From the IMG/VR virus record IMGVR_UViG_3300050821_003463, positions 30,544 to 94,543 of that record: DNA of 64,000 nt; one strand, written 5' to 3'. Below, in pieces: positions 10,151 through 39,825 of the stretch. The notes beneath the pieces are model-generated. The model was not told the DNA's origin. It did not search any database and saw only the letters and a list, made by a program, of their open reading frames with translations. The DNA is from a virus. The stretch's first letter is position 1. Every line of letters starts with the position of its first letter. A program made the position numbers and the translations under genes.

Positions 10151-10160
10151 GCAACGCACC

Positions 10161-19168: not shown

Positions 19169-19381
19169 TCACCGGAAGTGCCTTCCTGTCTTCGGCGCGG
19201 AGGGGATTGGCTTCTTCGCCGTCAGACGATACGTAAGATAGTTAGACGGCTGAGGCACGACGATTGAGAAAACTTCCCAACCATCCTGTGCCCACTCGTT
19301 GCACGCTTGCTGTATCTTGTCGGGTTGCGTCCAACTGTCGACATTGTTTACGACTATGCGCGAACGGAATTCATATGTCAT
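19169..19381 (-). CDS. DUF4177-like small protein with C-terminal GRHFR
   Basis: YEFR...NEWAQDGWEVFSI. Confidence 0.6.
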   Translation of the reverse strand: MTYEFRSRIVVNNVDSWTQPDKIQQACNEWAQDGWEVFSIVVPQPSNYLTYRLTAKKPIPSAPKTGRHFR

Positions 19382-20409
19382 CGAAATTTTCTCCCAGTGG
19401 TAAAAAGGGGCTTGCTCGCACCAGCCGGTAACGCTGGCGTGCCCGCCGCTGCCTGCTGTCGAAGGAACTTCTGGAACGCTTCCTGCTGATCTTCCGGCAT
19501 CAGCGCGACCGGCGCAGCGCTCGGCTTGACGCCTTCTGATAGCATGACCTTCAGGATGTGCTTACACTCTGTACGTGGGGAGTGCTGCGTAAAGTTAGGG
19601 CACGAGCAAGCCCAGCCCTCAGCCGTTGTCGAGCCCTTCGGATTCACAGTGCGACTGACCACGTAGGGTGCCTTCGCCGTGCCTTGCACAGTCCACTGCG
19701 TTGTCCACATCGGGGAGTTCGACTTCGGCAGTTTTCGCACCTCACCGTTCTTCATCGGAGGTGTGACCTTCTTTACCTTCACGAAAGACGGCTTTACGTG
19801 ATCTTCGATATTCACAGTTCCCTTTCCGCTGCAGGCAGGGCAATGCGTGCCCGACCAGTCTGCCTGATTGTGATACAGATTGCAACCGAGACAGCGCACG
19901 ACAGCGTACTCTATCTTCGGTCCAAAGACTTGCGCCCAGCTTTTAATTTTCTGAGAAACCTGCTCCACCGTAGTCGGCGCAGTGATCGTGTCGCCCCACT
20001 TCTCGTACTTCCACATCGGCTTGCCGTCTTCGAGCACTCCACCTGAAGTGTCATTGAGCGCGCGCCGATAGTAGCCCTTCAGGTTGCTGTGGATGGGAAC
20101 TGTAGGTTTTTCTTCCATCGCGTCCGCGTTATCCCAGATACCGGTTATGTCTTTCTGGAACGGAGACGCATAGTGGATGGGGTGTTTCGACAGCGGTATC
20201 CTGGGCGTCTCGTTCGTTATGGTCTTGACCTTCTTGCCGCACTTCGTGCAAGTGAAAACTATCTTGGTGCCCGCCCAGTCTGCTGCGCCCACCGTGTTGA
20301 AGTGCGCGCACTTTGCCTGCTCAACGCGACAGGATGAGCATAGCCCGTCCCCGTGGGGAAAGTCTTCCGTATGGGTCGCGCACTTCGAGCAGTTGACTTT
20401 TGCCATCAC
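19378..20409 (-). CDS. SWIM zinc-finger protein with several CxxC motifs and C-terminal GRKFR
   Basis: WACSCPNF...CKHI. Confidence 0.75.
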   Translation of the reverse strand: MMAKVNCSKCATHTEDFPHGDGLCSSCRVEQAKCAHFNTVGAADWAGTKIVFTCTKCGKKVKTITNETPRIPLSKHPIHYASPFQKDITGIWDNADAMEEKPTVPIHSNLKGYYRRALNDTSGGVLEDGKPMWKYEKWGDTITAPTTVEQVSQKIKSWAQVFGPKIEYAVVRCLGCNLYHNQADWSGTHCPACSGKGTVNIEDHVKPSFVKVKKVTPPMKNGEVRKLPKSNSPMWTTQWTVQGTAKAPYVVSRTVNPKGSTTAEGWACSCPNFTQHSPRTECKHILKVMLSEGVKPSAAPVALMPEDQQEAFQKFLRQQAAAGTPALPAGASKPLFTTGRKFR

Positions 20410-20476
20410 ATCCTCCGGTTAAAAATGAGGCTGGCTACCCGACGGATCGGACCAGCCCCTGCCAACAACAAAAACT

Positions 20477-20569
20477 TTACGCCCGTACCCAGGCTTCCAG
20501 CTTCGCGACGATCCACATCACTTCAAGCAGGATAAACATGCCCAGCCCTTCGGTCACCCATGCGCGCAT
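20477..20569 (-). CDS. 30-aa hydrophobic peptide
   Basis: MRAWVTEGLGMFILLEVMWIVAKLEAWVRA after GGGAGG RBS. Confidence 0.5.
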   Translation of the reverse strand: MRAWVTEGLGMFILLEVMWIVAKLEAWVRA

Positions 20570-21019
20570 AGAACCCTCCCGTGTACTTTGTATACTGATG
20601 CTCCAATCCCGTTAGACTGGAGCACCAATTTGGCGTCATGCCCGTTCTTTGCGTTTACAGCCCGTTTAAGCGCCCCAGGTTTCGTGGGGTGCCTGAGACT
20701 CACCTTTGCCCTCCGACCCCCTGTTTTCGGGCGGGAAAGTGGGTACGTTTGCGGGTACAGTGAGCCCGCAGCACCCACATCGCCAGGACACCCCGTACTT
20801 TTGGGGTCGGGGGAGTCCGCAGCGAGGACAGCTCATCGAGTCCTCCGCGCCTGCTCGCCCTCATCCTCCCACCCCGTGTACGGCTCAGGGGTAGGCTGCT
20901 GGCGACAGTCGGCGCATAGGAGTTCCGTCTCGCTCACGGTCACGCCACACGCACCGCACAGGTTAACCCGTGGCTTGCGCTGTTGGTTGATGCGGGCTTC
21001 CTTCGCTCCGTACGACATG

Positions 21020-21439
21020 TCAATTTCCTCCTGCGGCTGCTGCCGCTGCTAGATTCAAGCTGATGATATGCGGAAAGCAGGCATCAGTATGGTACTGCTT
21101 CGCTGTGAAGTCAACATAAAAATACGATGTCTTGACGATGGCGTGCCAGGATGACTTGTTATAGGCAGCGCTGTCGTGCTTGCCGAGGGAGTAGAGCGTT
21201 GGATCGGGGTTATGCTGTCCAAAGGCGTAGTCGACTCCATGCGGATAGATGCTGAAGTCGTAGCGAGATAGTTCTCCCTGGTAGCCCTCTGTGCGTGCAA
21301 AGCGGATGAAGGCGTCGCTCGTGCTATCGCACATGCAGTACGCACCGTCGGGAGTGTCGAGCCCGTACAGCCCGGGCTCGCAGTTCTTGCTATGCCGAGA
21401 CTCCGCGAACTTCTCGATGAGTTTCATGAGTTCATCCAT
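21020..21439 (-). CDS. Papain/transglutaminase-like small protein
   Basis: CMCDSTS...WHAIV...VDFTAKQY (Cys-His-Asp order). Confidence 0.5.
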   Translation of the reverse strand: MDELMKLIEKFAESRHSKNCEPGLYGLDTPDGAYCMCDSTSDAFIRFARTEGYQGELSRYDFSIYPHGVDYAFGQHNPDPTLYSLGKHDSAAYNKSSWHAIVKTSYFYVDFTAKQYHTDACFPHIISLNLAAAAAAGGN

Positions 21440-22786
21440 CGCTAGTTGCCCTCGAAGAACAGATTGTTGTGTTCGTGTTCACGCTCCAATGCCACAATGA
21501 GCACACGTATCGCAGCCTTCCCTCGTTCCGTCAGAGGGTCGTTGATCATCCAGAACTTCAGGCGTCGTGCCACTTCGTCGAAGTTAAGCCTGTGGTCCCT
21601 GGTGTACAAGCGACCGTCACCGCTGTAGTAGATATCTTCCTGTGGCATAGTTTCCTCCGAGTGAAATGATCGAGCGGGTTGGTGGTCCCCGCCCGATTTT
21701 ACTGAGACGACTTAGCGCGCCTCGTTGCTCCACGCCTCAGCGGGAATCGTTGCATTAGCTTCCGGTGCATTTTATATGAGTGCCATCGTGCAACGTCCAG
21801 AGAGTCCGACAAAGCGACCCCCTGGGAAGAGGTTTGCCACATGAGGAGCAGCGATCCTCGCGTGCGATCTTGCCGATGGCGGACTGTATGACATCAGTGA
21901 GCGGGATTGACTTGCTGACCGGCGCGCGTAGCCCTTTGATGATCGATAGCGCGCCGCGTCTATCGCTCACATGCATGCCGCCCAGCTTCGAGCGTTTCAG
22001 CATGAGTTGTGCGAGCAGTATAACGGGGGAGTCCGGTACGCCGACGCCCCAGTTATCCATTCTTAGCTCCTAACTGCTGCTGCTTGTGAGCGTCGAGCCG
22101 TTTTCCAACTGCGTCGCCCAGGTCATTTACATTTGATTTCACAGCCAGCGTACTGTTTGACGGTGCGTTGAAGAGGACGAGATCGTACACACAACCCTCG
22201 CACTCTTGGATGCCGACGTACTTCGCGCCAGCCTTCTCGACTTGCTGCTTGAGATACTGCTCGTAGACATCATCCAGCATTCGCTTCATTGATTCCTTCC
22301 GTAGATACAGCCTATGCCGTACATCGCAGCGTCGATTACCTTCTTCGCCGCCCGCAGCGTCATGCTACGGGGGCGAAGCACAAGGCGAGCGACGCGTCGC
22401 CAGTAGACGTCACGCTCCGCTGCTGTGTAGAGTAGCGCGTCCCTCATCGTTTGCCTCGATTCAGTTCCGCGTTCAACCTCTGGAACGGAGTCTCGGCGCG
22501 GGGAGGTGGAGTCGCGAGGACGCAGAGTACAGGGAAGCCACAGATGGTCTGTTCAACCAGCCGTGTCTTGAACCCGACAGAGCGCAGGCTGAGCGCTCTC
22601 GCGATAGCTTGATTCAACCCTGCGACTGTTAAAGGAAGCGTACAACTGATCTCTTCCATAAGATTCTCCTCAAGAGTTTGGTTGCGACGTGGACAGCGAC
22701 AGCGATAAAGTTGATGGTTGACAGAAGAATAGCATACCACATCAGCCATAGATCGGGGTGCGTGAAGTGCCCGTGATAGAACATGC

Positions 22787-23288
22787 TCACCTCGTGCAGT
22801 AAAAACCCTGTTCGATGAGCAGCCACACGAACCCGATTCGATTGATAAATCCAGGTCGCTGCACCATCAGTGACTTGATTGGCGTAGGGAGTTCAAAAGG
22901 CGGCATCACGAAGGTCACACAGCCCTCGCAGCCTGTCTTGTTGGAGCGCGACGGTGCGACGTGGTAGCCCTCGCCCTCTTTGAGTTCTGCCCCACAGGTC
23001 AGCTTGCGGTACTGCTGGCGCACTGCGAAGTCCATCTCAGGGCACTGCGCTTCTAGGTGCAGGCTGGTCTGCGCTTCAGGAGTGCGCAGGTAGTCTATGA
23101 ACCGGTCGAACTCTGCGACCTCTGAGTCGTGGGGAGAGAGCACAGTGAGGGAACGCGGGACGCGTGAAGCGGGGACAGGTTTCAGCGAGTTGGTCTTGAC
23201 GGTGAACTCGTTGTCGTTATCATCCCGTATCTTTGAGAGGGTGCCGGATTGCTCCAGCACCTCCACAGTTGACTTGCGATAGATCATG
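22787..23288 (-). CDS. Hypothetical protein
   Basis: Long ORF in minus-strand early block; start approximate. Confidence 0.5.
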
Positions 23289-23474
23289 AGTGACATTATC
23301 GGCTCCCTACAGGCAGAACGCGAGCCGCGCCTGTGGCGGTATCAAATTCTACGGATATGTATTCATCATATTCGATGAACTTATCTTTCAGCGCAACAGT
23401 AGCGCTCGCGGCATTCATATACTCGCCTTCTGTTGCGTAGTCGGGGTCCTTGAACGTGCAGATGAATTTTGCCA

Positions 23475-23906
23475 TCACCGCACCTCCTGATCGAGCAGAT
23501 GGTTGACGATGATTGCCTTGCCCTTCGCGATGCAGCCAGGGCACGTCACAACCCAGGTATCCAAGTAGCAGCGGGTCACTGCGCCAGCCTTAGCACAGAG
23601 CGTGCTGCCTTCCTGGATAACGTGGCTGTTGGTTTCGACATCGTACGCGCTGGTGTTCAGGATGTGAAAGTGATGCTCCCCTGCGACCAGCACCGTATTG
23701 AACGGCAGAAGCTTCTGCACGTCTCCGTCTGCGATGCTGCGTTTGAGTACCTCGCGCTCCAGCCGATCAAAGTCAAGTATGATTAGCGTTGCCGTGGGTG
23801 TGAGTAAGTCGACGCTTGGGTCGACAACGTCAAACGTGGTGGATGCCTTGGCGAGCGCTGCTCGAAGTTCAGACTGGCGCAAAGCTTGATATTGAAATTC
23901 GTTCAT
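23475..23906 (-). CDS. Hypothetical protein
   Basis: Coupled ORF with VTCPGC. Confidence 0.5.
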   Translation of the reverse strand: MNEFQYQALRQSELRAALAKASTTFDVVDPSVDLLTPTATLIILDFDRLEREVLKRSIADGDVQKLLPFNTVLVAGEHHFHILNTSAYDVETNSHVIQEGSTLCAKAGAVTRCYLDTWVVTCPGCIAKGKAIIVNHLLDQEVR

Positions 23907-24247
23907 AGGGTTACCTTTCGCTTGGCGAGTTCCGCCAAAAGTTCGAACGTTGAAAAATTTTTCAGAGTCTTTCGTCCCTTCGGATGCCTCTGGTTTTTAA
24001 TGCTCTGCCTGCGGGTTGCCCACCGTACGTTGCCTACAGCATAATGCCCATCGTTTTCAATTCGGTCAAGCATGCGACGTGAGGGGCGTTTGCCGAGTTC
24101 TGCGAAGAACTCCTCGAATGAGGTGAACAGGAATTTTATTCCCCGTCCACCATAATTCGGGAAGTCTGTGCAATTCGGATTCGTGCAACGATTACGAGCA
24201 TCGTAGTAAGCCCGCCATTCGACGGGGTGTGTCTTGTAGGGTTTCAT
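23903..24247 (-). CDS. HNH-type homing endonuclease-like protein
   Basis: RCTNPN...YGGRGI...LDRIENDGHYAVGNVRWAT. Confidence 0.8.
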   Translation of the reverse strand: MKPYKTHPVEWRAYYDARNRCTNPNCTDFPNYGGRGIKFLFTSFEEFFAELGKRPSRRMLDRIENDGHYAVGNVRWATRRQSIKNQRHPKGRKTLKNFSTFELLAELAKRKVTL

Positions 24248-24249
24248 GT

Positions 24250-24465
24250 TTACTGCTTCAGCGTGTTCTTGTGCTGAGCAGGCTTGTTGAATTCACCCTT
24301 GTGTGTGACCTTCACGGTTTGCCCGATTGCATTCCCGAAAGCCTGTGCGACTGCGTCGCAGCCTTTGCCCTGGTACCCATTCAGGTCTACCGTTTGGTCG
24401 CCGGTGGCGATGTCAATGTTGATGGTGATTATCTTAGCCAAAGTGCCCTCACTTTCGGTTGTCAA
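24250..24465 (-). CDS. DUF2997-like protein
   Basis: ITINID..G...LNGYQGKGC...KGEF; adjacent to DUF1257-like gene. Confidence 0.7.
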   Translation of the reverse strand: MTTESEGTLAKIITINIDIATGDQTVDLNGYQGKGCDAVAQAFGNAIGQTVKVTHKGEFNKPAQHKNTLKQ

Positions 24466-24856
24466 TGAATTGGAGTTGAACTTTCCCGTTGACGATCTTC
24501 TTGCCGAGGAACTGCAGACCGTTCTTGCGCGCGGTCTTCATGTCCACCTTCTCGGTATACGCGACCTTCAGTTTCGTCATCCAGGTAGCGTCGTGCTTGT
24601 TGCTATCGTAGTCGCTGACGATTGCGCTGTAGGTCCCGTCCGCTGCTTTGACAAAGCCGAGATCGTTCGCTGCGCTACCTATGTGCTGGCGGCGCACGAT
24701 GACGTTGGCTGTCTGTGCTCGCTTGTCGCCGTGATAGCCGAACAAGTTCTGTGCGACTTCGTTCACTTCCACGTTCTTGTAGCCCATCTCACCAAGGGCT
24801 TCGACAAGACAGTCGCGATCTTTGTACTGTGTCTTCTGTGTGTGGTATGCGCTCAT
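24449..24856 (-). CDS. DUF1257 (Ycf35-like) protein
   Basis: LVEALGEMGY, GYHG, NDLGF...YSAIVSDYD. Confidence 0.75.
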   Translation of the reverse strand: MSAYHTQKTQYKDRDCLVEALGEMGYKNVEVNEVAQNLFGYHGDKRAQTANVIVRRQHIGSAANDLGFVKAADGTYSAIVSDYDSNKHDATWMTKLKVAYTEKVDMKTARKNGLQFLGKKIVNGKVQLQFIDNRK

Positions 24857-25131
24857 GCTATTCGTTCTCCCTTCGAATTTGTTTGCCCGCGTTGACGAGA
24901 ATGTCGATTACGTTAACGGCGTCTTGCTGTGAAAGTTTGCCCGCGTTCATCGACCAGCCGACATACAATAGCGCGTGGGATATCTTGAGATACCCGGGTG
25001 TGTGCCACGGTTGCTTCATCGTGTTCCCCTCTCATAATAGTTGGCGCGCGCTTCGAGTGCTGCGCGCTTTGCCTGTGATCCGCGCCGCCACATGTAGACC
25101 AGCGCGACGATTGCGAGACTGAAGATAACTT

Positions 25132-25590
25132 TCATAGTGTCCTCTCAGCAAAGAATTTATTGAGGAAGGCGATCTCCGCACTGATAGCTGCTTGTCTGTC
25201 GTGCGTCGTGAACGTCCGGTGATCCATCCACGCAGCGACGGGCGACGGTGCGACATGCTCCCAGGTTAGAACAGGTCCGCCGACAGGGGACGTATCGACT
25301 CGCCACTCGCATGCCCACGTTCGTGTCCACGCTGCGACCTTGCTCGTGTCGCTGGAGAGTATACGAAGTAGATTGAAGGCGAGACGCAGTAGCCAGCCTG
25401 CGGGTTCTACGTGCGACGCGCGCTTCGTGATCACCTCTCCGAGTTCGAGGAAGCAATCTGCGCTGTCGGTCTTCAGGAAGACTTGGTCACCATTCTCATC
25501 TATCGTGACGGTGATAATCTTGTGCGCTGGAATCGGGAACGTCTTGGGATATCGCGCGTCGTACCCTTCAGGTTTTGAGATGTGCTTCAC
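25132..25590 (-). CDS. Hypothetical protein, part of AAA module
   Basis: RASHVEP...WRVDTSPVGGPVL...DRQAAISAEIAFL. Confidence 0.6.
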   Translation of the reverse strand: MKHISKPEGYDARYPKTFPIPAHKIITVTIDENGDQVFLKTDSADCFLELGEVITKRASHVEPAGWLLRLAFNLLRILSSDTSKVAAWTRTWACEWRVDTSPVGGPVLTWEHVAPSPVAAWMDHRTFTTHDRQAAISAEIAFLNKFFAERTL

Positions 25591-25649
25591 AGATGTTCTC
25601 CAGTGTTATAGAGGTGAGGGGCGGCTGTGTGAGCCCGCCCCTGTTGAGT

Positions 25650-26560
25650 CTAGCGAAACTTTCTGCCAGAGGTGATAACCATCGTCTTCAGTTCAGCGCG
25701 TACGCCTTCGAGTTGAGAGATGACGTACTGTTGAAGGTTGCCCGACTCTTTCAGGCGTTCGACCGTGACACCCTGCATCGCGTTCTTCACGACTTGCATG
25801 TTCTTCATGAAGTCCACGTCGTTCGCGAGATCACGATCAGGCAGCGTGTCGAGGAACTCTTGCAGGTGCTCGACGTGACAGCCGTACATCTTCTTCGTCT
25901 TGCCCGCTTCAGGCTTGAGCATCGCGAAGAGTGCGTCGACCATCTCAGCACCAGCCAAGCGCATCGCATCGCGCCACTCGATAACAGCCTGCATGCGGAT
26001 GCTGCGTTCCTTCTCCTGCTCACGGGCGATAATGATATCGCTCATGCCGGTGAGGTTCACGCTGCCGACGTTGCGGTAGTTGAACTCCAGAACGAAGCCA
26101 GCCTCTACTGTGTCGCTCGCTGGATAGTCGCTCCGGTCAAAGTTCTCAGCAAGAACCTCGCGCAGCGGTTGAAAGTCTACCGCTTCGAGTTCCCTGTACT
26201 TCGTCATGAACGCCTCGACTAACTTGGGGCGTCGAATCGTCTGGTATGCGACGATGGCGCGGTCCACTTCGTTCAGCCACTTGCGCGGAAGGAAGCGCGT
26301 TGCCTCGCGATACCAGCATGACTTGGACTCGACGTAGCGCTTCAGGAAGCCGTCCTGTGAGCGAATCTCTTCGAGTTCGGGTGAGTCCATCAGGCGTTTC
26401 TGGTGACGCAGTTCACTCGCCTGTGTAGCGGTTTCGACTTTCAGATTCTTGATCTGGCGCATGCGACCGATGCCCATGCGGAAGTTGATGGTGATTGAGA
26501 CGCAGCTTTCAGTCTTGCTCAGGTCAACGTTCGCGACGGGTGCCACTGCGGGTGATGCCA
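25650..26560 (-). CDS. DUF3150-like helical protein with C-terminal GRKFR
   Basis: FDRSDYP motif; position next to Ycf46-like ATPase; start may be 26576. Confidence 0.5.
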
Positions 26561-26703
26561 TTTTATTTTCTCCCATAAGAAGTTTGTGGCGCGATTTATT
26601 TTGTGACTACGTCGCGCCGTCGGTCAGCCTGAGCCGCCGTGCTTACTGCGACTTCAGTTCACTACAGTTTAACGTCATGGAGTGAGCGTATGGACGGTTG
26701 CTA

Positions 26704-28254
26704 CTACCGCATCTTGCGTCCTTCCGTTATCTTCACGGTCGGCGCGTGCTTGGTTGCGGGTGGAGTGTACTTGTAGACGCCCTGGTTAGATGCCGACAGG
26801 AAGCGGTCGGTAGCTCCAGCGCGTAGCACCTCCATCTCTTCTTTATGACTGGTCATCAGAGGGATGATGTATTGACCAGCATCTTCCAGCGTGACGCGCA
26901 TCTTCCGCGCCTTGTTAGCGCAGTTCTTGATGTCGCGCCCAGTCCAGCCCGTCATGTCGGGGTAGGTCTGTGCGGGGAGTTTGTTCGCTGTAACTTTCAG
27001 GTCCATGATGCCCTTCTTCTCTTCGTCGTTCGGCGCATCAAAGAAGAAGATGTCAGCGAAGCGGGAGAGCAGTTCGGGCGGTAGACCGTCCAGTTTGTTT
27101 GCGGTTGCGATGAGCCACACGCGACCGTCGCTAATGGATTGCACGGTGTGATTCGCGCTCACCATGTTTTTGTTCGAGTTGCCAACCAGTGAGTCTTGCA
27201 TTTTTGAGATGCTGTAGTCGATGACTGGCTTGTCGAACTCACCAGCGATGCAGTCGATGCTGTGCGACTTAGACGAGCCCGGTACACCCAGGAACAACGA
27301 GCAGTAGATGTCGTTATCGTTCACCCAGGTCAGCCACTCGCCAAGTAGGTCACCCTTGACGCCGCTGCTGTCGGTGTCGTTCCCTGAGAACTGGCGTTGT
27401 ATCTCATCCATCCTCAGAATCACGGTGGGTGATTGCTCACCAGTCATCAGCTTGCGACCGTATGCCTTGATCGATTCAACCCCGTACAGGTCCTTCAACT
27501 TCAGACCACCTGCGCGGTAGGTCAAACCTTTCTGCTGGGAGACGATAGTCTTCTTGCGAAGCCACAGCGTCTCGATATCCAAAATGCCCTTCGCTTTGTC
27601 CAAGCACATCGCAGTCGCCTGCTCTGCTGGGAAGAGAGGGATTCCGATGAGTGCGTCAACAGCGTTCAAGACTACCGCTTCACTCGGTCCAGCCTTGCAC
27701 GCTGCGTACTTCACTTTGTCACTCGCGTATGCGTACGCGTATGTCTCGCGGACGATTGCTGCGAGTTCAGCGCGCGTCGGCAGTGGATGCTCTAGCACCA
27801 GCGTGTCTTGCTGCAACACGACTGGGATGCTGTCACCGATTCCGAGGAGTAGCACGCACATGTTACCGCGCGCCTTGTAATCGTTGCGCAGATTGGCAAC
27901 ACCCTGGATGACTTTCTTGTCATCGTCCCAGGTGAGCTGCGGATTGAGGATGAATGCGAGGACATCTTCCTGCGCTGCTTCGAGGATGCCAAGCGCGATG
28001 GGCAGGTCAACCGATGCGCCGACTTCCATGCCGCTCTCGCTCGCCATCTTCTGTAGAGCGCTCGTGCCAGCGTCTGTAAGCCCGCGTAGCCCGTGGATGC
28101 TGTCCCAGGCTATGAAGGGGGTGACCTCTGCGAGTTCAGCGCCCAGCGAAGCCTGTATCGTCGTAATGGTCGACGTAGGATCGAAGGTGCGGATAGCGAC
28201 GGTCGGGGTCGATACCGCGCGTGCGTCAGTGAACATCTCAATGAATGACTTCAT
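26704..28254 (-). CDS. Ycf46-like AAA+ ATPase with rearranged Walker motifs, C-terminal GRKMR
   Basis: MDEIQ, GVPGSSKS, IATAN, LPPELLSRF, FFFDAP, WTGRDI. Confidence 0.85.
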   Translation of the reverse strand: MKSFIEMFTDARAVSTPTVAIRTFDPTSTITTIQASLGAELAEVTPFIAWDSIHGLRGLTDAGTSALQKMASESGMEVGASVDLPIALGILEAAQEDVLAFILNPQLTWDDDKKVIQGVANLRNDYKARGNMCVLLLGIGDSIPVVLQQDTLVLEHPLPTRAELAAIVRETYAYAYASDKVKYAACKAGPSEAVVLNAVDALIGIPLFPAEQATAMCLDKAKGILDIETLWLRKKTIVSQQKGLTYRAGGLKLKDLYGVESIKAYGRKLMTGEQSPTVILRMDEIQRQFSGNDTDSSGVKGDLLGEWLTWVNDNDIYCSLFLGVPGSSKSHSIDCIAGEFDKPVIDYSISKMQDSLVGNSNKNMVSANHTVQSISDGRVWLIATANKLDGLPPELLSRFADIFFFDAPNDEEKKGIMDLKVTANKLPAQTYPDMTGWTGRDIKNCANKARKMRVTLEDAGQYIIPLMTSHKEEMEVLRAGATDRFLSASNQGVYKYTPPATKHAPTVKITEGRKMR

Positions 28255-28456
28255 GTTATTTTCTCCTCCGAGTAGGCCAGTAGTGATCCGCGAGTCCGTT
28301 CAAGGAACTCACCGTGAGATACAGTACCGCCAGAAATCCTATCGTGTGCATGGTGTGCTCCTGTTGACGTAGTCGCTTCGCGCAACACTCGGCTCAGGAT
28401 TTTCGCAGGAGCAATAATTGCACGAGTGCTGCGCGAGGCAACTGCCTCGCTGTCGG

Positions 28457-30592: not shown

Positions 30593-30597
30593 AAACA

Positions 30598-30650
30598 ATC
30601 TTAGCTGGTGGTCTAGAACCTGTCAACAACAAAATAAAATTATTTTCAAG
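30598..30650 (-). promoter_or_regulatory. Strong sigma70-like promoter with AT-rich UP element
   Basis: TTGACA (30621-30626)-17 nt-TAAGAT (30598-30603). Confidence 0.75.
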
Positions 30651-30667
30651 CCTTTGTTATCAAACGT

Positions 30668-31081: not shown

Positions 31082-31755
31082 AGGTCAGCCGTGCCTCTCT
31101 TGAGCCATTGATACGTGACATACGCCAGGGGCACGAGATCAGCCGGTTGCCACGCGTACCAGATGACATAGCGCAGCGCGTGCATCATCGCCCCTCCCTG
31201 TGCCCCATTGGTTCGTTCGCAGGACCGACCACAATGCACGATGCGCCTGTGTACCGGTTGCGCCCGCAGTGCGCGCAGACAGAGACGCGTTCACACGCAC
31301 GCTCAAGTACGGGAATGATACGAGACAAGATCATCTCAGCGAATTGCATCAGTTGAATTCTCACTGCATCCTCCTCACGCGATGCAACAGCTCTGCGTCG
31401 CGACATGCCCTGCTAACGTGGTCGTAAGCCGCCTCTGCCTGCTCGCGCGTTGTCGTGATACCCTCGCGCGCCTGCGATGCGATGATGCAGCGCACGAGCA
31501 GCGCGCGCCGTTTGATTGGATCACGCAGTATCGCGCGGATGTCGACTCGCTTAGTCAAGTTCCCCTCCCTTGGCATTATCCCACGCCATCTGAATCACCT
31601 GCTCTGTCTCTGCGATGCGCCGCTTGATGATGACGCGAGCCGCAGCGCGCGCCTTATAGCAGCCATCGTGAACTCGATACCGTGGCTGCTTGCCTTGTTC
31701 TTCTTCGCTGAGATGATGCAACACGCGTCCCAGCGCGTAGATCGTGACTGCAAGG

Positions 31756-32037
31756 TTAGTTGACATATGCCACCACCTCATAGCGACCAGAGTCATACTT
31801 ATGCCACGACAGGGAGAGATAGGTATACGTGCCGACGCGCATGGGAGAGCAGTTGCCATCGCGCCCGCAGTAGATCGCGGGCTCAGTCTCCTCGAAGCCA
31901 TTCGCTGCAAGTGCAGCATCTATCTCAGCGATAGGCAGCGAGTCATGCCGCAATAGCCCCAGCGCATGCAGCGCATTGTTGACGCGTCTGCGTGCGACGC
32001 GTTCCTGCTGTGCTGTCATCTGCGTTAGCTTATCCAT
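31756..32037 (-). CDS. Hypothetical early protein
   Basis: LSWHKYDSGRYEVVAYVN C-terminus. Confidence 0.55.
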   Translation of the reverse strand: MDKLTQMTAQQERVARRRVNNALHALGLLRHDSLPIAEIDAALAANGFEETEPAIYCGRDGNCSPMRVGTYTYLSLSWHKYDSGRYEVVAYVN

Positions 32038-32636
32038 TAGAAACCCCTTTGATTGACTGTGAGGTGCGCCACTGCCGCCGACGCCTTCTCCTGTGCCTCG
32101 ACTTCACTGGAAGCGATGATCCGATTGACGCCAGTCACCTGCGTGCGCGCGCCAGCCGCACCGTTATCATACACAACACCGTCAACCATAGCAAACGCGT
32201 GATTGTTCGACCAGAGCAGCCAACGGCCCGTGCGATGTGTCCTGACGAATTCTGCGAGCGTCGCATAGCGTGCGCGAGTGTAGCGCGTGCGCTGTCCGTA
32301 TGAGTTCACAGAGACGCGCGACGTTGTGCCCACCTGCGACGCGGGCTGAACGAAGGCGCGGAAGCCGAAGATGCACTCGCCTGTCGTGGCGATATCGCGC
32401 ATGATTAAATTGACACTCATCGTCGCCTTTTTCGGCTTGCGACCGAAGCGCTTGGCAACGTAGGTATGCGCGTCCCTGTATGGCACGCCTGTCACTGCCT
32501 GCACTGCCTTGACAAAGCAGTCGTTCGTCTCATACTCGAAGCCCTCGTCTCTGGTCTTCATCGCGACGGCCTTGACGCCCGACCTGCTCAGCTTCGTGTG
32601 CTCTGTCTTGATCCGTTCGTACTCTGCGTTTGGCAT
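32037..32636 (-). CDS. Papain-fold (C39-like) protein, probably leaderless
   Basis: NDCFVKAV...HAFAMVDGVVYD; TTGCGC-17-TATCCT ends 6 nt before the ATG. Confidence 0.55.
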   Translation of the reverse strand: MPNAEYERIKTEHTKLSRSGVKAVAMKTRDEGFEYETNDCFVKAVQAVTGVPYRDAHTYVAKRFGRKPKKATMSVNLIMRDIATTGECIFGFRAFVQPASQVGTTSRVSVNSYGQRTRYTRARYATLAEFVRTHRTGRWLLWSNNHAFAMVDGVVYDNGAAGARTQVTGVNRIIASSEVEAQEKASAAVAHLTVNQRGF

Positions 32637-32684
32637 GTACCCAGGATAGGTGAGCGCGCGAGATAGCGCAAGAGCACTAAGGTG

Positions 32685-32984
32685 CTATGCCTTTCGTTCT
32701 AGTAGCGGATGGCAATTTAGGCAGACCCACAACAGGTTGTTAAGTCCATTGAAATCATCAACATCTAAGCGACGGTGATGTACGTGCCCTGGTCCTTCGA
32801 TTATCTTGAAACACGATTGACACATGCCGTCCGCGCGTCCGACCACTTTTGCATACACTAACGGCTGTGGCTTAATCAACTGTTGAGCGCGTTGACGTGA
32901 TATACCGAGTTGCTCTCCAATCTGCGTGTATGTAAAACCGGTCTTTTTCAACCTTACTGCTCGCTGCCTTTGCGTTTCGTCCAT
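32685..32984 (-). CDS. HTH-HNH protein
   Basis: TYTQIGEQLGISRQRAQQL; CQSC...HVHH...NNLLWVCLNCH; start MDETQ. Confidence 0.75.
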   Translation of the reverse strand: MDETQRQRAVRLKKTGFTYTQIGEQLGISRQRAQQLIKPQPLVYAKVVGRADGMCQSCFKIIEGPGHVHHRRLDVDDFNGLNNLLWVCLNCHPLLERKA

Positions 32985-33002
32985 GATATCCTCCCAACTA
33001 TT

Positions 33003-33085
33003 ACAATAGCACAACTGTGCCATAGAGTCAACCGATAGGCTGTGACCTATCGCGCACGGCGCGCACGATAGACTGTGACCTTTCG
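33003..33085 (-). promoter_or_regulatory. Promoter with two upstream palindromic operator-like repeats
   Basis: TTGACT-17-TATTGT; CGATAGGCTGTGACCTATCG (33033-33052) and CGATAGACTGTGACCTTTCG (33066-33085). Confidence 0.55.
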
Positions 33086-33437
33086 GTGCCATTTACATTG
33101 TACACGGGCTGTGAACCAATTCGGGCGTTCACTACCTGCGCCTCCATGATGCATGAACAAGGGGTACTCACAGTGAGCACAGGCGTACAGATTGAGCACA
33201 GCGTCGTGGCCTGGATAACTATCATGGACACGACTAGCGCAGCGAATACAAGGCGAAAGCCAGTCACCACGCGTAGCACAGTCGGTGACATGGCACAGCG
33301 AATCAAAGGCGAAAGTGTCACCGTACGCAGTACACTGCAATCCCAGGGTCGGGACGTTAAGGCGAATGCGGGGCAATTCGGGCAAACCGTGCCTGAGCCA
33401 GTGAGCATGATAGGGAGACACTCAAGAGAGAATAGGA

Positions 33438-33528
33438 AGCGAAGGACAGCGAAGGACAGCGAAGGCTGATCGCATAGCGCAGCGCCCCAGGTCACAGCAC
33501 GCTGACTGTAGCGAAGGATAAGCGAAGC
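33438..33528 (+). repeat. Short AGCGAAGG tandem repeats in a non-coding region
   Basis: Three tandem copies at 33438-33465 and more near 33510. Confidence 0.6.
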
Positions 33529-34780
33529 ACTCTTGCCGCGTAGCGACCCCAGTGATCTACAATGTAAACGCATGTCTTGGTTACTACGCCTTTTGTTCGC
33601 TATTCGCGAATACAGAATATCATAGATGAACTCTCGTTCGCTTTGTCTTCGCTGTGACGCGACACGCAGCACGCAGCACGCAGGCGGCTACGCAATCTCT
33701 TCGCCCTGTGTGGCACACAGTATACGCGTGCCCCGCGCCCGGTGTTACAATATAGCGTTTTGTAACACATGCTCGTAAACCCTTGATCCTGCGTGCCTTA
33801 TCCTACATTTGGGGCACTCGCGTCGCTCCCACCGCGTAACGTGTACTAGATACACGACTTAGCACGGGGCGAACGCATAGCGAAGGCTGCACGCTGCGTG
33901 CTGCGCAAAGTGATGATAACAAAGGGGATCATAGGGGGTCTTAACTGGGCGCGAGAGGGCACCGGCAGGGGCTCCCCGTACCCCTCTGCGCCGAGCGCAG
34001 CTTGGCTTAGCCCCGGTGCCCTTGAACACGGTAGGGGGTATAAAATTTTTTATAATTTTTATATGGGATTTCATATCAACTTGAGACAGGAGTCTCACTA
34101 TGAGATTCAGGATAGGGTGGTTACCTCCTTCTCTGGGTCCCCCTATGGGTGGTATCGGGTATAAGTGGGTGAGATTGGTACTGGACTCCTCCTGGAGCGC
34201 AGCGGGCGGGGAGGGGGTAACCTGGGGGCGGGCTAGTCTAGACGCAGGAAAGCCCCACCGGATGCCCGGGAGCGGCTGAATTAGCGTAGGATATACTTGG
34301 TACAGTTAAATCTCCCTACGAGACGTCCCCGGTACGCGTGTTGAAAGTCAACCCGCAGTCGCAGATCAAATCATTTCCCGAGCGCCGAGAGTACCAGTGG
34401 GCGTGAGGTTTCCTTCGCCATACGACGCCGTTAGCCAGCCGAGTCTCCTGCCACTGCCCGCCCCAGTAGCTAGAAGAGACGATCCTATCGGGGGACGTGT
34501 CCACATGGACCCAGGAGCCCCCGTCACAGCAGGCAGCTATAGCGACCCCGCAAGTTCTACAGTGGTCTGTACCATCCGTATCAATCCGGTGGATCATCGA
34601 GGTCCTCGTAGGTCCATCTCTTCGTCACTATCTGTGAACTTACTCGCTGTCGAATTGAGAATGCGGCAGAGCGCCCGCTCGATCCTCTTAGGCTCATCCC
34701 GGTTGAACACTCGGAGGTGCGTCTCACCGTCCGGTGAAACGATGAACCAGTTCCCGCCGATATTCTCTCTGTGCCACAGA

Positions 34781-34999
34781 CTAAAAGGGGATATCGTCAT
34801 TTGGTTGCTCCACGAGTCGAAACTTCCGGCTCTTGTGAATCTTCCTCAAATCCTTAAGCAAGCTGGCCCCGTACGCGGGGTGTAGGGCGACTCCGAAGCG
34901 GGTCATCCTGCGCCAGCTCCCGGTCGCCGCGCCCAGGTCTGGCATCCACTCCTCAATGAAGACGAGCGGTTCAATCGGATCACTCTGTTTCACAGTCAC
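34781..34999 (-). CDS. Small protein ending DDIPF
   Basis: ORF track; tail matches the SSB C-terminal peptide. Confidence 0.45.
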   Translation of the reverse strand: MTVKQSDPIEPLVFIEEWMPDLGAATGSWRRMTRFGVALHPAYGASLLKDLRKIHKSRKFRLVEQPNDDIPF

Positions 35000-35787
35000 A
35001 GATCGCCTCCAGGAAGTTCTCCATCAACTTCATCTCACTCAGCCGCATCCAGGCGACCGGAATCTTTAGCTCACCAGCGTAGAACCCCCGGGACCGATCC
35101 CGGCGCGTGGTGAATGATTCTGCAGGTTTGTACTTTCGGGTGAGCGGGGTATCAGGTACCCCGTCATCATATTCTACGGTCATCGTATGATCTCCGTCCA
35201 CGGTTTCCCGCAGGATGGACAGCCCTGGTCGAGCAGGTGAGGCAGGGACATCCCCGACCACATGCAGGTCACACACTTGGTTATACACCAGCCCGTGTCT
35301 GTACTACCTGACTCGGGGAGGACGAACTTCAGCAGATCGCCCTTGGAACTCCAACCCAACCGCGCGTACGCTTCTCTTTCAGTCATCGCAGACCTTTCAC
35401 CATCCGAAATGGCTCTCCGAAGTGAAATGCGCCGGAACCCGTGAGCCCTTCTGTAGCTTCCTGGTAACGATCCAGCGCGTCCCAGACCTCCTGCGGAACA
35501 GCGGGAGGCAGGAGATGCGGGCACGGGTCCTCCGTGCAGTCGAGCCCGTTAGAAAGGGTTGTCATTATATTCTTCGGTCTGAGCCCCTCCAGCCGGTGTC
35601 TCGCTTACCGCGCTCGGCGCATAGAACGTGGAGCTGGGGTCGGGGTTGGTTATCCAGGGGAGTGGCGCTGGATTGAACACCGGAGGGTTGTACACGTACG
35701 GCGCGGGGAAGAAGGTGAACGGCGGGACGGGTTTGAGTGTCAAACTCTCTACCTGATAGCCGTCGGGAATGTCCAGTGTGATCTTCA

Positions 35788-36144
35788 TTAGCTCCTCATT
35801 TCTAGGGAGGGTATGAACTCTCCCAATCTGTCGTTCGAAGAGACGTAGGTCCCAGACCACTTCGTCTCCGGTCGGTCGACCTTCATCTTGTTGAAGCAGG
35901 CGAGCGCTGGGATGGTGAAATGCATAAACTCAAATCTGGTCGGGAGTGACTTCCACTTCAGCGCATATCCCGTCTGCAGGAGTTCATAGTGACGGACGTG
36001 GATCACGACCCCCTCGTCGTTCTTTTGCACGGTAGAGAAAAACACGCGAGGCGAGTAGGACTCTGGATGCTCCTCGTGCGTAGTAGCGTTCTCGCTCATC
36101 ACCGTCTCTGTGGTGATGTCGCACTGGATTAAGGGTTCAGTCAT
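35788..36144 (-). CDS. Hypothetical protein
   Basis: Coupled ORF with RBS. Confidence 0.5.
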   Translation of the reverse strand: MTEPLIQCDITTETVMSENATTHEEHPESYSPRVFFSTVQKNDEGVVIHVRHYELLQTGYALKWKSLPTRFEFMHFTIPALACFNKMKVDRPETKWSGTYVSSNDRLGEFIPSLEMRS

Positions 36145-36363
36145 CGCTTCTCCTTTTCCAGCGGTTCATTTTCGTAGAAGTGCCAGCCGTCAGTCCCCTT
36201 CAACTTCTCAACAGCCTCTTCAAACCGGGACATCATGTGCTCACTGTGCATGATGAGCGCGGCTGCTGTGTTGTCAAACTTGTCCACCTGTTGCCCGAAT
36301 GCGTGGAGCGTCGTGCGCAGGTGTGTCGCGACCTTAGTCAGCCCCTCCGCGTTGATGCTTAAT

Positions 36364-36588
36364 TCAGTTTCCATCTCTCCTCGCTTTCATCTGCGTCTCG
36401 ATAAAGTCTGCGATCTCTCGCAAGCAGGAGACGTCAAATATTCCATTGCATTCGAAGCAGTATCGCCGCCACGGTGCGTACCACCTGATCACTCCGAGCA
36501 CATTATCAGGGCGCGCGTTGAGGACTCTCCAGACCTTCGTGATGTTCCCTCGGGGCGGAACGCCCTCTTCAAATGTCAAAAAACTCAT
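36364..36588 (-). CDS. Hypothetical phage protein
   Basis: LGVIRWYAPWRRYCF...CLREIADF. Confidence 0.6.
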   Translation of the reverse strand: MSFLTFEEGVPPRGNITKVWRVLNARPDNVLGVIRWYAPWRRYCFECNGIFDVSCLREIADFIETQMKARRDGN

Positions 36589-36639
36589 CTCTCCTCCAAG
36601 GTGAAAAGAACCCCCAGCCGAGCCAGGGGTCCTCAGTGT

Positions 36640-38232
36640 TTACGGATTATACGTACAGACGCCGCTTGCGAGGTTACCCGTTCCGATGGTGAGGATGGCG
36701 GTTCCTTGAACGCATAGCCACGTACTGTGCCCCGTGGGGAAGTCAACCCGTGAGCAAAATCCTACAGAGTTCCAAGCGGGGAAGTCATAATCTCGAATCC
36801 ACGCGTCTCCAAAGTTTCCGCTGGCGTACTTATAGTCGGGGTTGTTGGTGTTCGAACAGATCGGGACCACAGTGTACGTACATTCCCAAAACCCAAACAC
36901 TAGCCTGCAAGGAGGGGTAGCTCTCGTCGCTACATTCCCGTACTTAGTGAAGGCTATCTCCTTCTCAATAGTATACTTCGGGACAGAGGGTGGCGGGTTA
37001 GAAATAAATCCCATCACCGAACACTGCACCTGTGACGTGGTGGTTCCGACCCAGCATTCCCCTGGTCCGTCCCATCCACCAAAGTATGGGTCGCACACAA
37101 GAGAGAGGTCATTCGATTGCACCGCTAGGTTAGACCCCGGTGCGCCGGATACTTGCTGTTCGCCATTTCCGATACCGTGAGGAAAGGCGAGGTTGAAGTG
37201 CAGGGTGTGAACCGCCCCTGCAGGGCAGTGTCCTCCCAAGACGGTGCAGTCGTAGTACCCCGAAAGAGTCCCGCCGACAGTCATCGCTATCACTAAGTAG
37301 TGGGAGGGAACGCCAGCGCTGTTAAGGGCAAACACGCCGAGTATGTCAGTTCCGTAGAGAGAGGTGGTCCCGCCGAGGTATGTGCCACCTTGCCTCGCCC
37401 ACACCGGAGAGGTGACGTTGAGGTCCATCGTGTAGAGATAACCATCCATCCCCACGACAAGTGCGGTCCCATCACTCGCGACAGTAAAGCCGGTTCCGTT
37501 TCCGCCGCCCATAGAGGTGGCTGTTCCTGTTGAGGGGTCTACGACGTACATCACTACGCCTTTTTGAGCGTAGATCAGCCCGCCGTAATAAAAGGAATTC
37601 GTCCACCCTGTACTTGAGAAGTGAGCCCAGGTAGCGTTAGGCGTAGCAGGGTTTTTAGAGTAGAACAGTTGTCCCTTTGAGGTGCCTACCATTATACCGT
37701 CCAGAGAGATACTGAACTGGGATAAGCATCCGTTATGTACAGCCCAAGAGGATTGGCTACTCTGCCATTCGTAAATGGCGTACACTCCAGCTCCTCCGAC
37801 ACTAGTGCAAGTTGCATTCGGCACGAGCGCGTAGATTTCAGTGCTGTTGCGAACCGCGAGTTGCTTAATCGGACCTGTAGCGCCTGTCAGACCGGCAGTA
37901 GTGGTCTGGGGAGCTAATGCCCACAAGGATTGCGCGCCCGAGTCGGCTCCGGTAGGAAGGGTATAGACGCCACCCCACTGATTCAATCCAAGGACGTAAC
38001 CGCCGCCTGTGGAGATAGAAGAGAAGCTCGCGTTAGCTCCTGTGGATGTGTAGTTCTGGGGTACGAAACACTGGTAGGTCGCACAGTTCGCGCGGTTATC
38101 AACCAGATTATAGTTGCCCGATGCGCTATAGTGTGCGCCTGATGCCTGTCCGAGAGACGGTACTACTGATGCGGCAAGCAAAGCCGCAGTTGCCACGATG
38201 GTTTTCCAACAACTCTTAAACGTTTTGAACAT
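36640..38232 (-). CDS. Secreted Cys-rich protein with beta-propeller (tectonin-like) repeats
   Basis: Signal peptide; ISxG..V.G.N..G.VY-type repeats; many Cys. Confidence 0.6.
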   Translation of the reverse strand: MFKTFKSCWKTIVATAALLAASVVPSLGQASGAHYSASGNYNLVDNRANCATYQCFVPQNYTSTGANASFSSISTGGGYVLGLNQWGGVYTLPTGADSGAQSLWALAPQTTTAGLTGATGPIKQLAVRNSTEIYALVPNATCTSVGGAGVYAIYEWQSSQSSWAVHNGCLSQFSISLDGIMVGTSKGQLFYSKNPATPNATWAHFSSTGWTNSFYYGGLIYAQKGVVMYVVDPSTGTATSMGGGNGTGFTVASDGTALVVGMDGYLYTMDLNVTSPVWARQGGTYLGGTTSLYGTDILGVFALNSAGVPSHYLVIAMTVGGTLSGYYDCTVLGGHCPAGAVHTLHFNLAFPHGIGNGEQQVSGAPGSNLAVQSNDLSLVCDPYFGGWDGPGECWVGTTTSQVQCSVMGFISNPPPSVPKYTIEKEIAFTKYGNVATRATPPCRLVFGFWECTYTVVPICSNTNNPDYKYASGNFGDAWIRDYDFPAWNSVGFCSRVDFPTGHSTWLCVQGTAILTIGTGNLASGVCTYNP

Positions 38233-38282
38233 AGGGTTTTTTCTCCTGATTTGATTTGTCCTTTCCGGTCATGATGCCTTTA

Positions 38283-39044
38283 TTATTTAATGCCACTCCC
38301 GCCCAGCGCATCCCAGAGTCGCACATACCAAGACACGTTGCGTGCTTCGTCCAGCTTCTCGCGGAGGATGCGAACAGTGTCTTGCCATGCATCCCGTTTA
38401 CTGCGCGCTAGGTCGCGCTCAAAAGTCACAGTAGCCAGATCATCTTTCAGTTTACGAATGTCACCCGCCTGGGTTTCGAGTTCCTTCCCCCATCGCGTTA
38501 TGATGTTGCTCTGGGTCGTTACGCGCTCGGAGAGATGTGTATTCTCAGCCCCCAGGTAATCTCTATCATCTCTGATAGCATCCAATGCCTTCAAAGTTTT
38601 CTGAAGAGAGTCACACCAAAAGTTCAGAGATGCATTGTTGATAGTCAGTTCCTCTCGGGTCTTCTTGAGTTGATCGTGATAAAAATCTCCGAGAGAGGTC
38701 AACGCGGCGATATGCTCCTCCGCTCGCGTTAGGTCTGCGCCTAGCCCCTTGACGTGCGCGAGTAGACCGGTATGATCTCTCTGGAGACAACTGTACGCCA
38801 AGTCTGAAGTTTTGAGTTGCTTCTCTAAGTCCGCGATCAACAGAGTGGTGTTCTCAACCGTGGCGAACTCTTCCGTCGGCTCAATCGGGTCCTGTGGTTT
38901 CGCAGGTGCCATGTCTCTGTAGAACCGGTCGACCTCTTCGTCCCCCACGCTAGCGCATGCGTCGCAGACGAACGGAGCGTTAATCGTAAGCGCCCGCGAA
39001 ACATAATCCACCAACCGGTAGCATTGGCTGCAAGTAATGATCAT
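38283..39044 (-). CDS. Zn-ribbon plus coiled-coil protein
   Basis: CSQC...CDAC then heptad-rich region. Confidence 0.6.
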   Translation of the reverse strand: MIITCSQCYRLVDYVSRALTINAPFVCDACASVGDEEVDRFYRDMAPAKPQDPIEPTEEFATVENTTLLIADLEKQLKTSDLAYSCLQRDHTGLLAHVKGLGADLTRAEEHIAALTSLGDFYHDQLKKTREELTINNASLNFWCDSLQKTLKALDAIRDDRDYLGAENTHLSERVTTQSNIITRWGKELETQAGDIRKLKDDLATVTFERDLARSKRDAWQDTVRILREKLDEARNVSWYVRLWDALGGSGIK

Positions 39045-39478
39045 AGCACTCTCCTCATCAAAAGTCCATCACCCTCGTCGCCGTAGTATCGCTTCGCGAC
39101 TCGCTCGACTCGATACCCACAATCGAAGTAGAGTTTCTGAGCGGGGTTGTCCACCTTGCACGATAGTCCGATGCTGCCGTGCCCGAGACGGCGGTAGCGC
39201 CGTGTGATCTGTTCTAACAGGTCCGTGCCGATTCCGCAACCCCTATATTTCGCAGTGACTGCGATGCTCCAGATGTACCGCCCTTCGGAGGATCGCTGTT
39301 CTACTATGGCGAAGGCGACTACGACGGAGTTAATACTAGAGACGAAGACGTCATCTCTGTCGAAGTGAATTCGGAAGAGTCCGATTGGCGGACGCTCGAC
39401 CCCGGCGAACGACTCGTCACTGATGGCGTGGACCTTCTCGAACATCTCTTCTGTCTTCTCGGTCGGTAAGAGTATCAT
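39041..39478 (-). CDS. GNAT acetyltransferase (RimI-like)
   Basis: IAVTAKYRGCGIGTDLL, NPAQKLY..CGY, YYGDEGDGLLM. Confidence 0.9.
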   Translation of the reverse strand: MILLPTEKTEEMFEKVHAISDESFAGVERPPIGLFRIHFDRDDVFVSSINSVVVAFAIVEQRSSEGRYIWSIAVTAKYRGCGIGTDLLEQITRRYRRLGHGSIGLSCKVDNPAQKLYFDCGYRVERVAKRYYGDEGDGLLMRRVL

Positions 39479-39825
39479 CGAAATCTCCTGCCCTGGGTGA
39501 TCTTCGCCGTGCGTTTGAAATCCGCTGTGACCGGCACGGGGTTGACCAGAGCCTTGCGCGCGGCGATCAGGTCTAATTGAGTTTCGTCAATGTTGTGCGG
39601 ACCCCCGGGCTTGTGCCGTCGTACGTAATCTTGCAGCGTCCAATCTATCTTATCAGAGTCTATAGGTACCGGTAAGATTTCCACCGTGTGACATTGCTTA
39701 CAGCCTACTCGCATTCGGTCTGCATGCCAAGCAAATTGAATGTTGACGTCCAATCCCGCAGTCTTCATCCACTGGTGGAGATAACTCTGGATTGTCGTTT
39801 GCACATCCGCTTTGCTCACCGGCAT
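39475..39825 (-). CDS. Hypothetical protein with C-terminal GRRFR
   Basis: CKQCH; coupled ORF. Confidence 0.6.
   Translation of the reverse strand: MPVSKADVQTTIQSYLHQWMKTAGLDVNIQFAWHADRMRVGCKQCHTVEILPVPIDSDKIDWTLQDYVRRHKPGGPHNIDETQLDLIAARKALVNPVPVTADFKRTAKITQGRRFR

Follow-up and report, generated by a model that had tools for sequence, protein, structure and literature searches.

Several short C-terminal peptides are known that bring their carriers to a shared molecular machine. The C-terminal XB tail of SspB tethers this adaptor to the N-terminal zinc-binding domain of ClpX, HbYX tails are found on PAN, Rpt, and Cdc48, and GQYL tails on mycobacterial Mpa and Bpa/PafE. In phages, the clamp-binding tails of T4 gp43, gp33, and gp55, and the polymerase-docking acidic tails of T7 gp2.5 and gp4, bring unrelated phage proteins to one hub, and shared terminal peptides of this kind are the way in which phages wire many proteins onto a single hub. 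A basic C-terminal tail is found in MuA, whose C-motif-2 degron, ...NRRKKAI-COOH, is read by ClpX (PMC12723719). Here, we describe a different, basic motif, GRKFR and its variants (the tag, hereafter), at the C-termini of unrelated proteins encoded in a 64,000-nucleotide window of viral DNA. This window covers positions 30544-94543, the right-hand 64 kb, of the 94,543-bp IMG/VR record IMGVR_UViG_3300050821_003463, a phage of ~95 kb rated as complete by CheckV. We suggest, with a probability of about 0.58, that the tag is a short linear docking motif located in a disordered C-terminal tail, that it has one co-evolving receptor, and that it is ancestral to two of its carriers, an AAA ATPase (family A) and its DUF3150-like neighbor (family B).

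A sequence-only reading of the window had noted five proteins sharing this C-terminus, and all five ends are as it had read them, all on the minus strand (Table 1). When the whole record is translated in six frames, GR[KRH][FM]R has 5 matches, and 5/5 stand directly before a stop codon in open reading frames (ORFs) of 70-516 amino acids (aa), whereas 200 shuffles averaged 0.01 matches and never gave more than 1. Genes were also called in this phage together with four related IMG/VR genomes (G002-G005, complete or near-complete, with family A proteins 53-73% identical to that of this phage), which yielded a set of 715 proteins with 139,531 residues. In this set, GR[KRH][FMILV]R has 18 matches, none of them internal and all at most 4 residues from the C-terminus, against a composition-based expectation of 1.5 anywhere and 0.04 at the termini. 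The motif is, therefore, far beyond chance, and the C-terminal enrichment foreseen by the earlier reading is borne out when relatives are included (18/18 matches). Its statement that the motif always lies at the extreme terminus stands for this genome and has to be relaxed for the relatives, where 1-4 extra residues are tolerated (GEGE, TE, VEN, DE, EDD). The carriers have no BLAST similarity to one another, as expected from its description of them as otherwise unrelated. Each of G002-G005 encodes 2-6 tagged proteins, all on the non-structural strand, and the tagged proteins cluster into six families, A to F, without mutual similarity, family E (226-265 aa) being missing from this genome.

Table 1. 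Positions of the tagged carriers, their neighbors, and other features (window coordinates unless a genome is named; tag codons exclude the stop).
Feature	Position	Strand	Remarks
Family A, AAA ATPase, 516 aa	26704..28254	-	ends ...TVKITEGRKMR; tag codons 26707-26721; stop TAG
Family B, DUF3150-like, 308 aa	25650..26576	-	ends ...TMVITSGRKFR; tag codons 25653-25667; stop TAG
Family C, Cys-rich, 343 aa	19378..20409	-	ends ...PLFTTGRKFR; tag codons 19381-19395
Family D, CxxC N-domain, 116 aa	39475..39825	-	ends ...TAKITQGRRFR; tag codons 39478-39492
Family E	G002:36800-37480, G003:88278-88985, G005:45826-46623		core always extended (GEGE, S, GVE, GAGE)
Family F, small protein, 70 aa	19169..19381	-	ends ...APKTGRHFR; tag codons 19172-19186
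Clp-type AAA+ unfoldase, candidate reader	9098..10306	-	Pfam AAA_2 9e-39 and ClpB_D2-small; PDB ClpC D2 4e-63
Conserved module: Cdc48-like AAA, DUF3150-like, 152-aa, DUF1257, weak DUF2997	24250-28254	-	
152-aa protein, untagged, next to B	25132..25590	-	phmmer matches beside A/B in L045-L073, Tunturi_3 gp99, and L012
DUF1257 (Ycf35-like) gene, untagged	24449-24856	-	Pfam 3.9e-9, above cutoff
Weak DUF2997 gene, untagged	24250-24465	-	Pfam 0.011, below cutoff
GroES-like Cpn10, 161 aa	11236-11721	-	Pfam 4.3e-14
Permuted (two-piece) tmRNA, phage-encoded	41114-41542 + 40105-40180	-	ARAGORN; Rfam tmRNA_permuted 75.5 bits (gathering score 47)

The tag has a well-defined anatomy. In a profile built over 52 non-redundant tags, with position 0 assigned to the last core residue, Arg occupies positions 0 and -3 in 52/52 tags and Gly position -4 in 45/52, while position -2 is K or R, rarely H, and position -1 is F, followed in frequency by I, M, V, and L. 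Further upstream, the preferences are S/T/E at -5, T/S/A/V at -6, I/V/Q at -7, K/V/F at -8, and L/V at -9. The terminal carboxylate follows the core directly in 35/52 tags, and the rest carry a short, often acidic extension. The linkers preceding the tag are rich in P, A, T, K, and Q. In the AlphaFold2 (AF2) models, the predicted local distance difference test score (pLDDT) of A is 93.9 overall and falls to 54-64 in its last ~20 residues, while that of B is 83.1 overall and falls below 50 in its last 5 residues. These low-pLDDT tails and variable-length linkers give the tag the same flexible-linker-then-terminal-peptide arrangement that characterizes the SspB-type tethering tail.

The tag is also widely conserved. 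It is kept in 117/120 homologues of family B (43-100% identity), mostly as LVxxxGRKFR, and the 3 untagged ones look truncated. Family A has hundreds of metagenomic homologues, and among the 120 best ones, at 52-85% identity, almost every protein closes with (G)RK[MFIVL]R, followed by 0-4 further residues. In family D, 6/6 homologues end in ITQGRRFR or ITTGRRFR, with linker indels of up to 34 residues, and the orthologues, which vary from 113 to 299 aa, have only the N-terminal CxxC domain and the tag in common. Most family D orthologues (P0392-P0397, G002-G005) have another conserved linear motif, P-[VL]-[TS]-[AV]-D-F-[KH], ~10-25 residues before the tag; it survives the linker indels and lies far further upstream in the long forms of G002, G003, and G005. 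Tagged orthologues of family C were found in G002, G003, G005, and the contigs L045, L049, L050, L054, and L065, and tagged homologues of family F in L045 (2.5e-20) and L054 (3.5e-16). In G002 and G005, the position of F, a small ORF just downstream of C, is taken by non-homologous ORFs that are also tagged, and metagenome contigs such as L045 and L054 contain up to six tagged ORFs. Upstream of gene C in this genome (window 20409-21020), there are small ORFs only and no family E. A single-protein pattern scan of IMG/VR gave no match, and a scan of genome contigs gave 5 loci.

In the wider A family, with 3,287 matches at E 0.001 or better and representatives at 32-56% identity, the tail consists of a variable linker after a conserved ...SASxPGxY, then R-[KRx]-phi-x (phi, hydrophobic), and then the end or an acidic stretch, as in GRKISVEE, RKIRFDE, GRAVRLED, GRKMR, and GRRIR. 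In the distant IMG/VR phages L008-L012, where A is only ~35% identical to that of this phage, A and the B homologue both end in R-x-I/L-x-phi-[DE][DE], with pairs such as RTISVED with RCITFDEE and RSLSLGED with RAITFEDE, and in L009, a third protein besides the A and B homologues ends in RKITLKD. Tails of this form in L008-L012 include RSIRLED, RKITLKD, and RAITFEDE (e.g., L009:11514-11933 and 14469-15560). In the Tunturiibacter phage Tunturi_3, the A homologue ends in GRIIR and the B homologue in DRKFHLEGEEF. Thus, A and B share a tail throughout, the tail differing between clades, and the oldest carriers of the tag are the ATPase A and its DUF3150-like neighbor B.

The main argument for a single reader comes from the concerted way in which the tags change within genomes. 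In G002, position -1 is I or V in 6/6 tags (five GRKIR, one of them with the GEGE extension, and one GRKVR), while in B homologues outside G002, this position is almost always F. In the G004/L065 lineage, all four tags gain 1-3 residues (TE, VEN, V, EAN), and in L084/85, acidic residues are added to all four (DE, EDD, FDEE, TDE). Gene conversion of a DNA cassette is an unlikely cause, since synonymous sites differ between the tags. This concerted variation, drawn from a handful of lineages and without a formal phylogenetic test, points to one co-evolving reader, and we consider it somewhat probable that the tag is a handle by which its carriers dock on one common protein receptor. The earlier proposal of an address tag read by one factor is, therefore, sustained as far as the common reader is concerned, given more than 200 homologues of three families together with the concerted variants, while its suggestion of virion loading or export found no support.

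Two alternatives bear directly on this argument. If the tag had no protein reader, the basic tail could anchor its carriers to DNA, RNA, or an anionic membrane, and a net charge of +3, one hydrophobic residue, a flexible tether, and the location of the carriers among genes of DNA and RNA metabolism would all suit such a purely electrostatic role, which is a point to be held against our reading of the tag. However, the strict Gly and two Arg at fixed spacing, together with the concerted change of the fourth core position, argue for a shaped pocket, and the acidic residues right after the core in many relatives (DE, EDD, GEGE) would weaken binding to a polyanion, so that we regard this alternative as very improbable. 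The other is that the tag is a capsid-loading signal directing cargo into an HK97-type procapsid for injection with the DNA, as encapsulins do with targeting peptides of the form phi-T-x-G-x-x-x-R, to which the tag bears a likeness in form and C-terminal position. All carriers are, nevertheless, encoded in the non-structural module on the strand opposite to the structural genes, no protein of the structural module is tagged in the five genomes, and a hexameric 516-aa ATPase would be unlikely cargo; hence, we give this alternative almost no weight.

That the codons of the tag differ between carriers had been taken in the sequence-only reading as a sign of selection at the protein level, and this is correct only in part. 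The tag is spelled GG[GA/C] AGG/AGA AAR/AGR TTY/ATC CGA TGA in families C and D of every genome, as well as in the F genes of G002 and G005; here, CG-ATG-A provides the start of the next gene and a Shine-Dalgarno (SD)-like GGAGG/AGGA lies ~8 nt upstream. In this genome, the CGA-TGA of C shares bases with the ATG of the following gene, and D overlaps the start of a GNAT gene by ATGA. The codons of C, D, and F are, therefore, doubly constrained rather than free, and the earlier codon argument is weakened in these three families. This coincidence also favors the idea of a by-product at the DNA level, that is, an upstream-frame reading of the ribosome-binding site (RBS) plus ATGA overlap (GGN AGG AAR NNN CGA TGA) that exists for translational coupling, and SD-derived upstream ends such as GGRKH, LGRRR, and NRGKR, besides LEGR, TDGK, and others, are indeed seen at other junctions. 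Against this idea, the genes of A and B have TAG as their stop codon and do not overlap another gene, their Arg codons include CGC/CGT/CGG beside AGR, and the tag is kept in more than 200 of their homologues; there is a hairpin 3' of the stop of B and no coupled gene there. The F gene of this genome (G000), likewise, ends in CGG TGA without a coupled start. Moreover, of 61 NTGA junctions (four-base overlaps) in the five genomes, only those from tag families yield G-R-[KR]-phi-R, and an RBS needs neither the hydrophobic fourth position nor the final Arg. We have, therefore, rejected the RBS/ATGA artifact as the whole explanation; it is largely refuted in that role, with a very slight residual chance. 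The protein-level case rests mainly on A and B, which are uncoupled, and on the control with the 61 junctions, and, judging from these sequences, the motif is selected at the protein level. The coupled junctions are instead a plausible origin of new carriers, given that they already encode G-R-K...R-stop and few changes would be needed.

How does the tag compare with the known tails? The closest tails of similar form are those of SspB and MuA. The XB tail of SspB is also a short extreme C-terminal peptide after a long flexible linker, basic plus aliphatic, with a basic last residue and a free carboxylate. The E. coli protein ends in ...PPRGGRPALRVVK, as read from the E. coli genome, that is, in ...GGRPALRVVK after an acidic/Pro linker. 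The similarity of ...ALRVVK to GRKFR, GRKIR, and GRIIR is one of form, not alignable beyond R-phi-(phi)-basic. Unlike the single SspB adaptor, six unrelated proteins, including an AAA ATPase, are tailed here. In the proteasome activators, the last few residues, which have to stand at the very end of the chain, are common to an AAA+ unfoldase and to a helical, ATP-independent protein unrelated to it; here, likewise, A is Cdc48-like and B in part a helical bundle. In contrast with the HbYX and GQYL tails, the penultimate residue of the tag is F/M/I/V, never Tyr, with K/R right before it, B has no significant structural match to PA26, PA28, or Bpa, and four further non-ring proteins are tagged. 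The T4 and T7 tails are hydrophobic or acidic and the tag is basic, resembling neither QL[SD]LF nor the T4-type hydrophobic/acidic clamp motif, and its carriers are not recognizable replisome parts. As for MuA, both tails are basic and C-terminal, but the residue order and the terminal residue differ, and the MuA degron belongs to a single protein. The statement of the earlier reading that it knew of no such motif agrees with the literature, where no description was found. We suggest keeping in mind that the motif, its carriers, and its anchoring on the Cdc48-like/DUF3150 pair appear undescribed, while the principle of a shared terminal handle is already known.

The likeness to the MuA tail raises the alternative that the tag is a C-terminal degron for the timed unfolding or degradation of its carriers, either by a host ClpXP-type AAA+ protease or by a phage Clp ring working on host ClpP. 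The tail is terminal, disordered, and basic plus hydrophobic, resembling ...RRKKAI, and the phage has its own transfer-messenger RNA (tmRNA, with an ...AFAAAA tag), suggesting that it engages host tagging and proteolysis. It also encodes a Clp-type unfoldase with a single ClpC/ClpB-D2-like ring and a likely start at M53, hence without an N-domain, in which IGF aligns to the AGF of the ClpP-docking loop of ClpC, (I/L)GF being conserved in the orthologue alignment. The phage has no Pfam Proteasome or CLP_protease match, that is, neither a ClpP nor a proteasome subunit of its own, nor any cognate peptidase of the kind that HbYX and GQYL tails engage, and the (I/L)GF loop without a phage ClpP suggests an unfoldase that borrows ClpP from the host. 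On the other hand, such a very strong, superfamily-wide conservation on a large ATPase would be unusual for a turnover signal, and the tolerated acidic extensions are unlike known C-terminal ClpX degrons. Furthermore, among ten IMG/VR records, the phage Clp ring is present in G002-G005 and was not found in G006-G010, distant relatives where A and B are still tailed. Altogether, the degron alternative seems to us improbable, and that the common receptor is a Clp-type unfoldase or protease in any role is a tentative possibility with the odds against it.

The nature of A and B brings in another alternative. Family A matches Pfam AAA (1.1e-7) only in its C-terminal half and has no N-domain. Its AF2 model is predicted to be a tandem AAA fold with a degenerate D1-like half and an active AAA half. 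Foldseek aligns it over both halves with Cdc48, p97, Rix7, NVL, and Drg1 (E ~1e-11 to 1e-12, template modeling (TM) scores of 0.35-0.51), and it has the two stacked AAA folds, the classic-clade motifs, and the flexible C-terminal tail of the Cdc48/p97-like enzymes. Unfoldases of the Cdc48/p97 type use flexible C-terminal tails for partner docking, and their rings recruit many cofactors through short motifs. The nearest ESM Atlas clusters of B are DUF3150 (0.96). In the AF2 model of B, a beta region is combined with a bundle of helices, and fold searches with Foldseek against PDB and with VIA wide returned nothing beyond generic helical-bundle matches (Z 9 or less). The tails could be an assembly glue binding the core of A, or of B, much as partner proteins may mimic an oligomerization motif, with the Cdc48-like ring as the platform on which B to F, its cofactors or substrates, would come together. 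In favor of this idea, A and B universally occur side by side and both are tailed, in some lineages only one of them keeps the tail (B in L079/86, A in L073), and the fold of A matches Cdc48/p97 rings. However, neither AF2 monomer has its tail docked, a co-varying acidic site was not found, and the tag of A itself would be left without explanation. For these reasons, we hold the assembly alternative to be not much to be expected.

Several points also weigh against our own proposal of one co-evolving receptor ancestral to A and B. No receptor was identified. The AF2 monomers of A and B show no in-cis reader site, and it would be odd for A to be the reader while being tagged itself. The Clp ring cannot be the ancestral reader, since A and B remain tailed where it was not found. 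No clamp was detected with DNA_pol3_beta_3 or gp45, a weak negative as the gp45 control itself gave a weak signal, and in one genome only, and with neither clamp nor ClpP nor proteasome in the phage, a peptidase or clamp receptor would have to be host-encoded. The likeness to the SspB and MuA tails is, as said, one of form (basic plus hydrophobic, terminal). The complex prediction of full-length A with B, each with its own alignment, gave an ipSAE of 0.00 in both runs, without controls, and speaks neither for nor against binding.

If the proposal is correct, the tail phi-x-phi-x-x-G-R-[K/R]-[F/M/I/V]-R-COOH would plug unrelated proteins of the early/replication module into one shared receptor. 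An R-x-phi-x tail, with either a free carboxylate or a short acidic stretch at its end, would be ancestral to the A/B pair across a very large phage superfamily. In the clade of this phage, four further families (C, D, E, and F) would have acquired the tag, a spread probably helped by the coupled junctions (SD GGAGGA plus ATGA) that already encode G-R-K...R-stop. The receptor may be a ring-shaped machine of the AAA+ or protease type, with host ClpX/ClpP, the N-domain-less Clp ring of the phage, or the A hexamer as candidates, and by analogy, the tail would act on it like that of SspB on the N-domain of ClpX or like those of the proteasome activators. Going a step further, one may think of a viral address system in which six phage proteins are bound through their common five-residue tail by one conserved pocket of such a ring machine, a bolder idea that we consider unlikely. 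In that case, A (ATP-dependent) and B (ATP-independent) would be alternative caps or adaptors, and C to F would be clients or delivery factors, the whole being an adaptor set of the phage that reprograms proteolysis or unfolding during infection and whose members were recruited from Shine-Dalgarno/ATGA junction sequences.

Whatever its receptor, the tag marks a module of no known function (Cdc48-like ATPase, DUF3150, DUF1257, and DUF2997), which is widespread among uncultured phages of soil and peat. It also provides an experimental handle, as finding the receptor by means of a 12-residue peptide could assign a function to at least six families at once. In addition, tag codons that double as an RBS and an overlapping start suggest a simple route to new address labels.

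With respect to the remaining carriers and neighbors, Pfam, PHROGs, and NCBIfam gave no function for the carriers or their relatives. Family C has CxxC pairs, a DnaJ-type CxxCxGxG, and a SWIM-like motif at E = 0.29, while family F matches DUF4177 at E = 4.9e-4, below the Pfam cutoff, so the labels SWIM and DUF4177-like given to them by the earlier reading are weak. The untagged 152-aa protein beside B is a candidate partner or reader because it accompanies A and B even in distant relatives; it obtained no family or fold assignment, and ESM Atlas was uninformative. No paper was found on DUF3150 or on the function of DUF1257/DUF2997.

The genes from ~1 to 47.5 kb of the window lie on the minus strand and form the non-structural module, the structural genes being on the plus strand. 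Besides the carriers and the Clp-type ATPase, this module includes RecA, endonuclease VII, a ResIII helicase, an RNA ligase, RlaP, a small integrase-like protein, GNAT, a family A DNA polymerase, and a primase-polymerase. Megablast found no close cultured relative, the sole cultured match being the above-mentioned Tunturi_3, with 37% identity on A. A tRNA-Thr(TGT) adjoins the phage tmRNA, whose tag peptide according to ARAGORN is ATTEKPKAFAAAA; it is unrelated to GRKFR, and a link between the GRKFR tail and the phage tmRNA was, therefore, rejected. The module also encodes a GroES-like Cpn10, which at 161 aa is longer than the cellular co-chaperonin and is kept in 4/5 of the related genomes compared.

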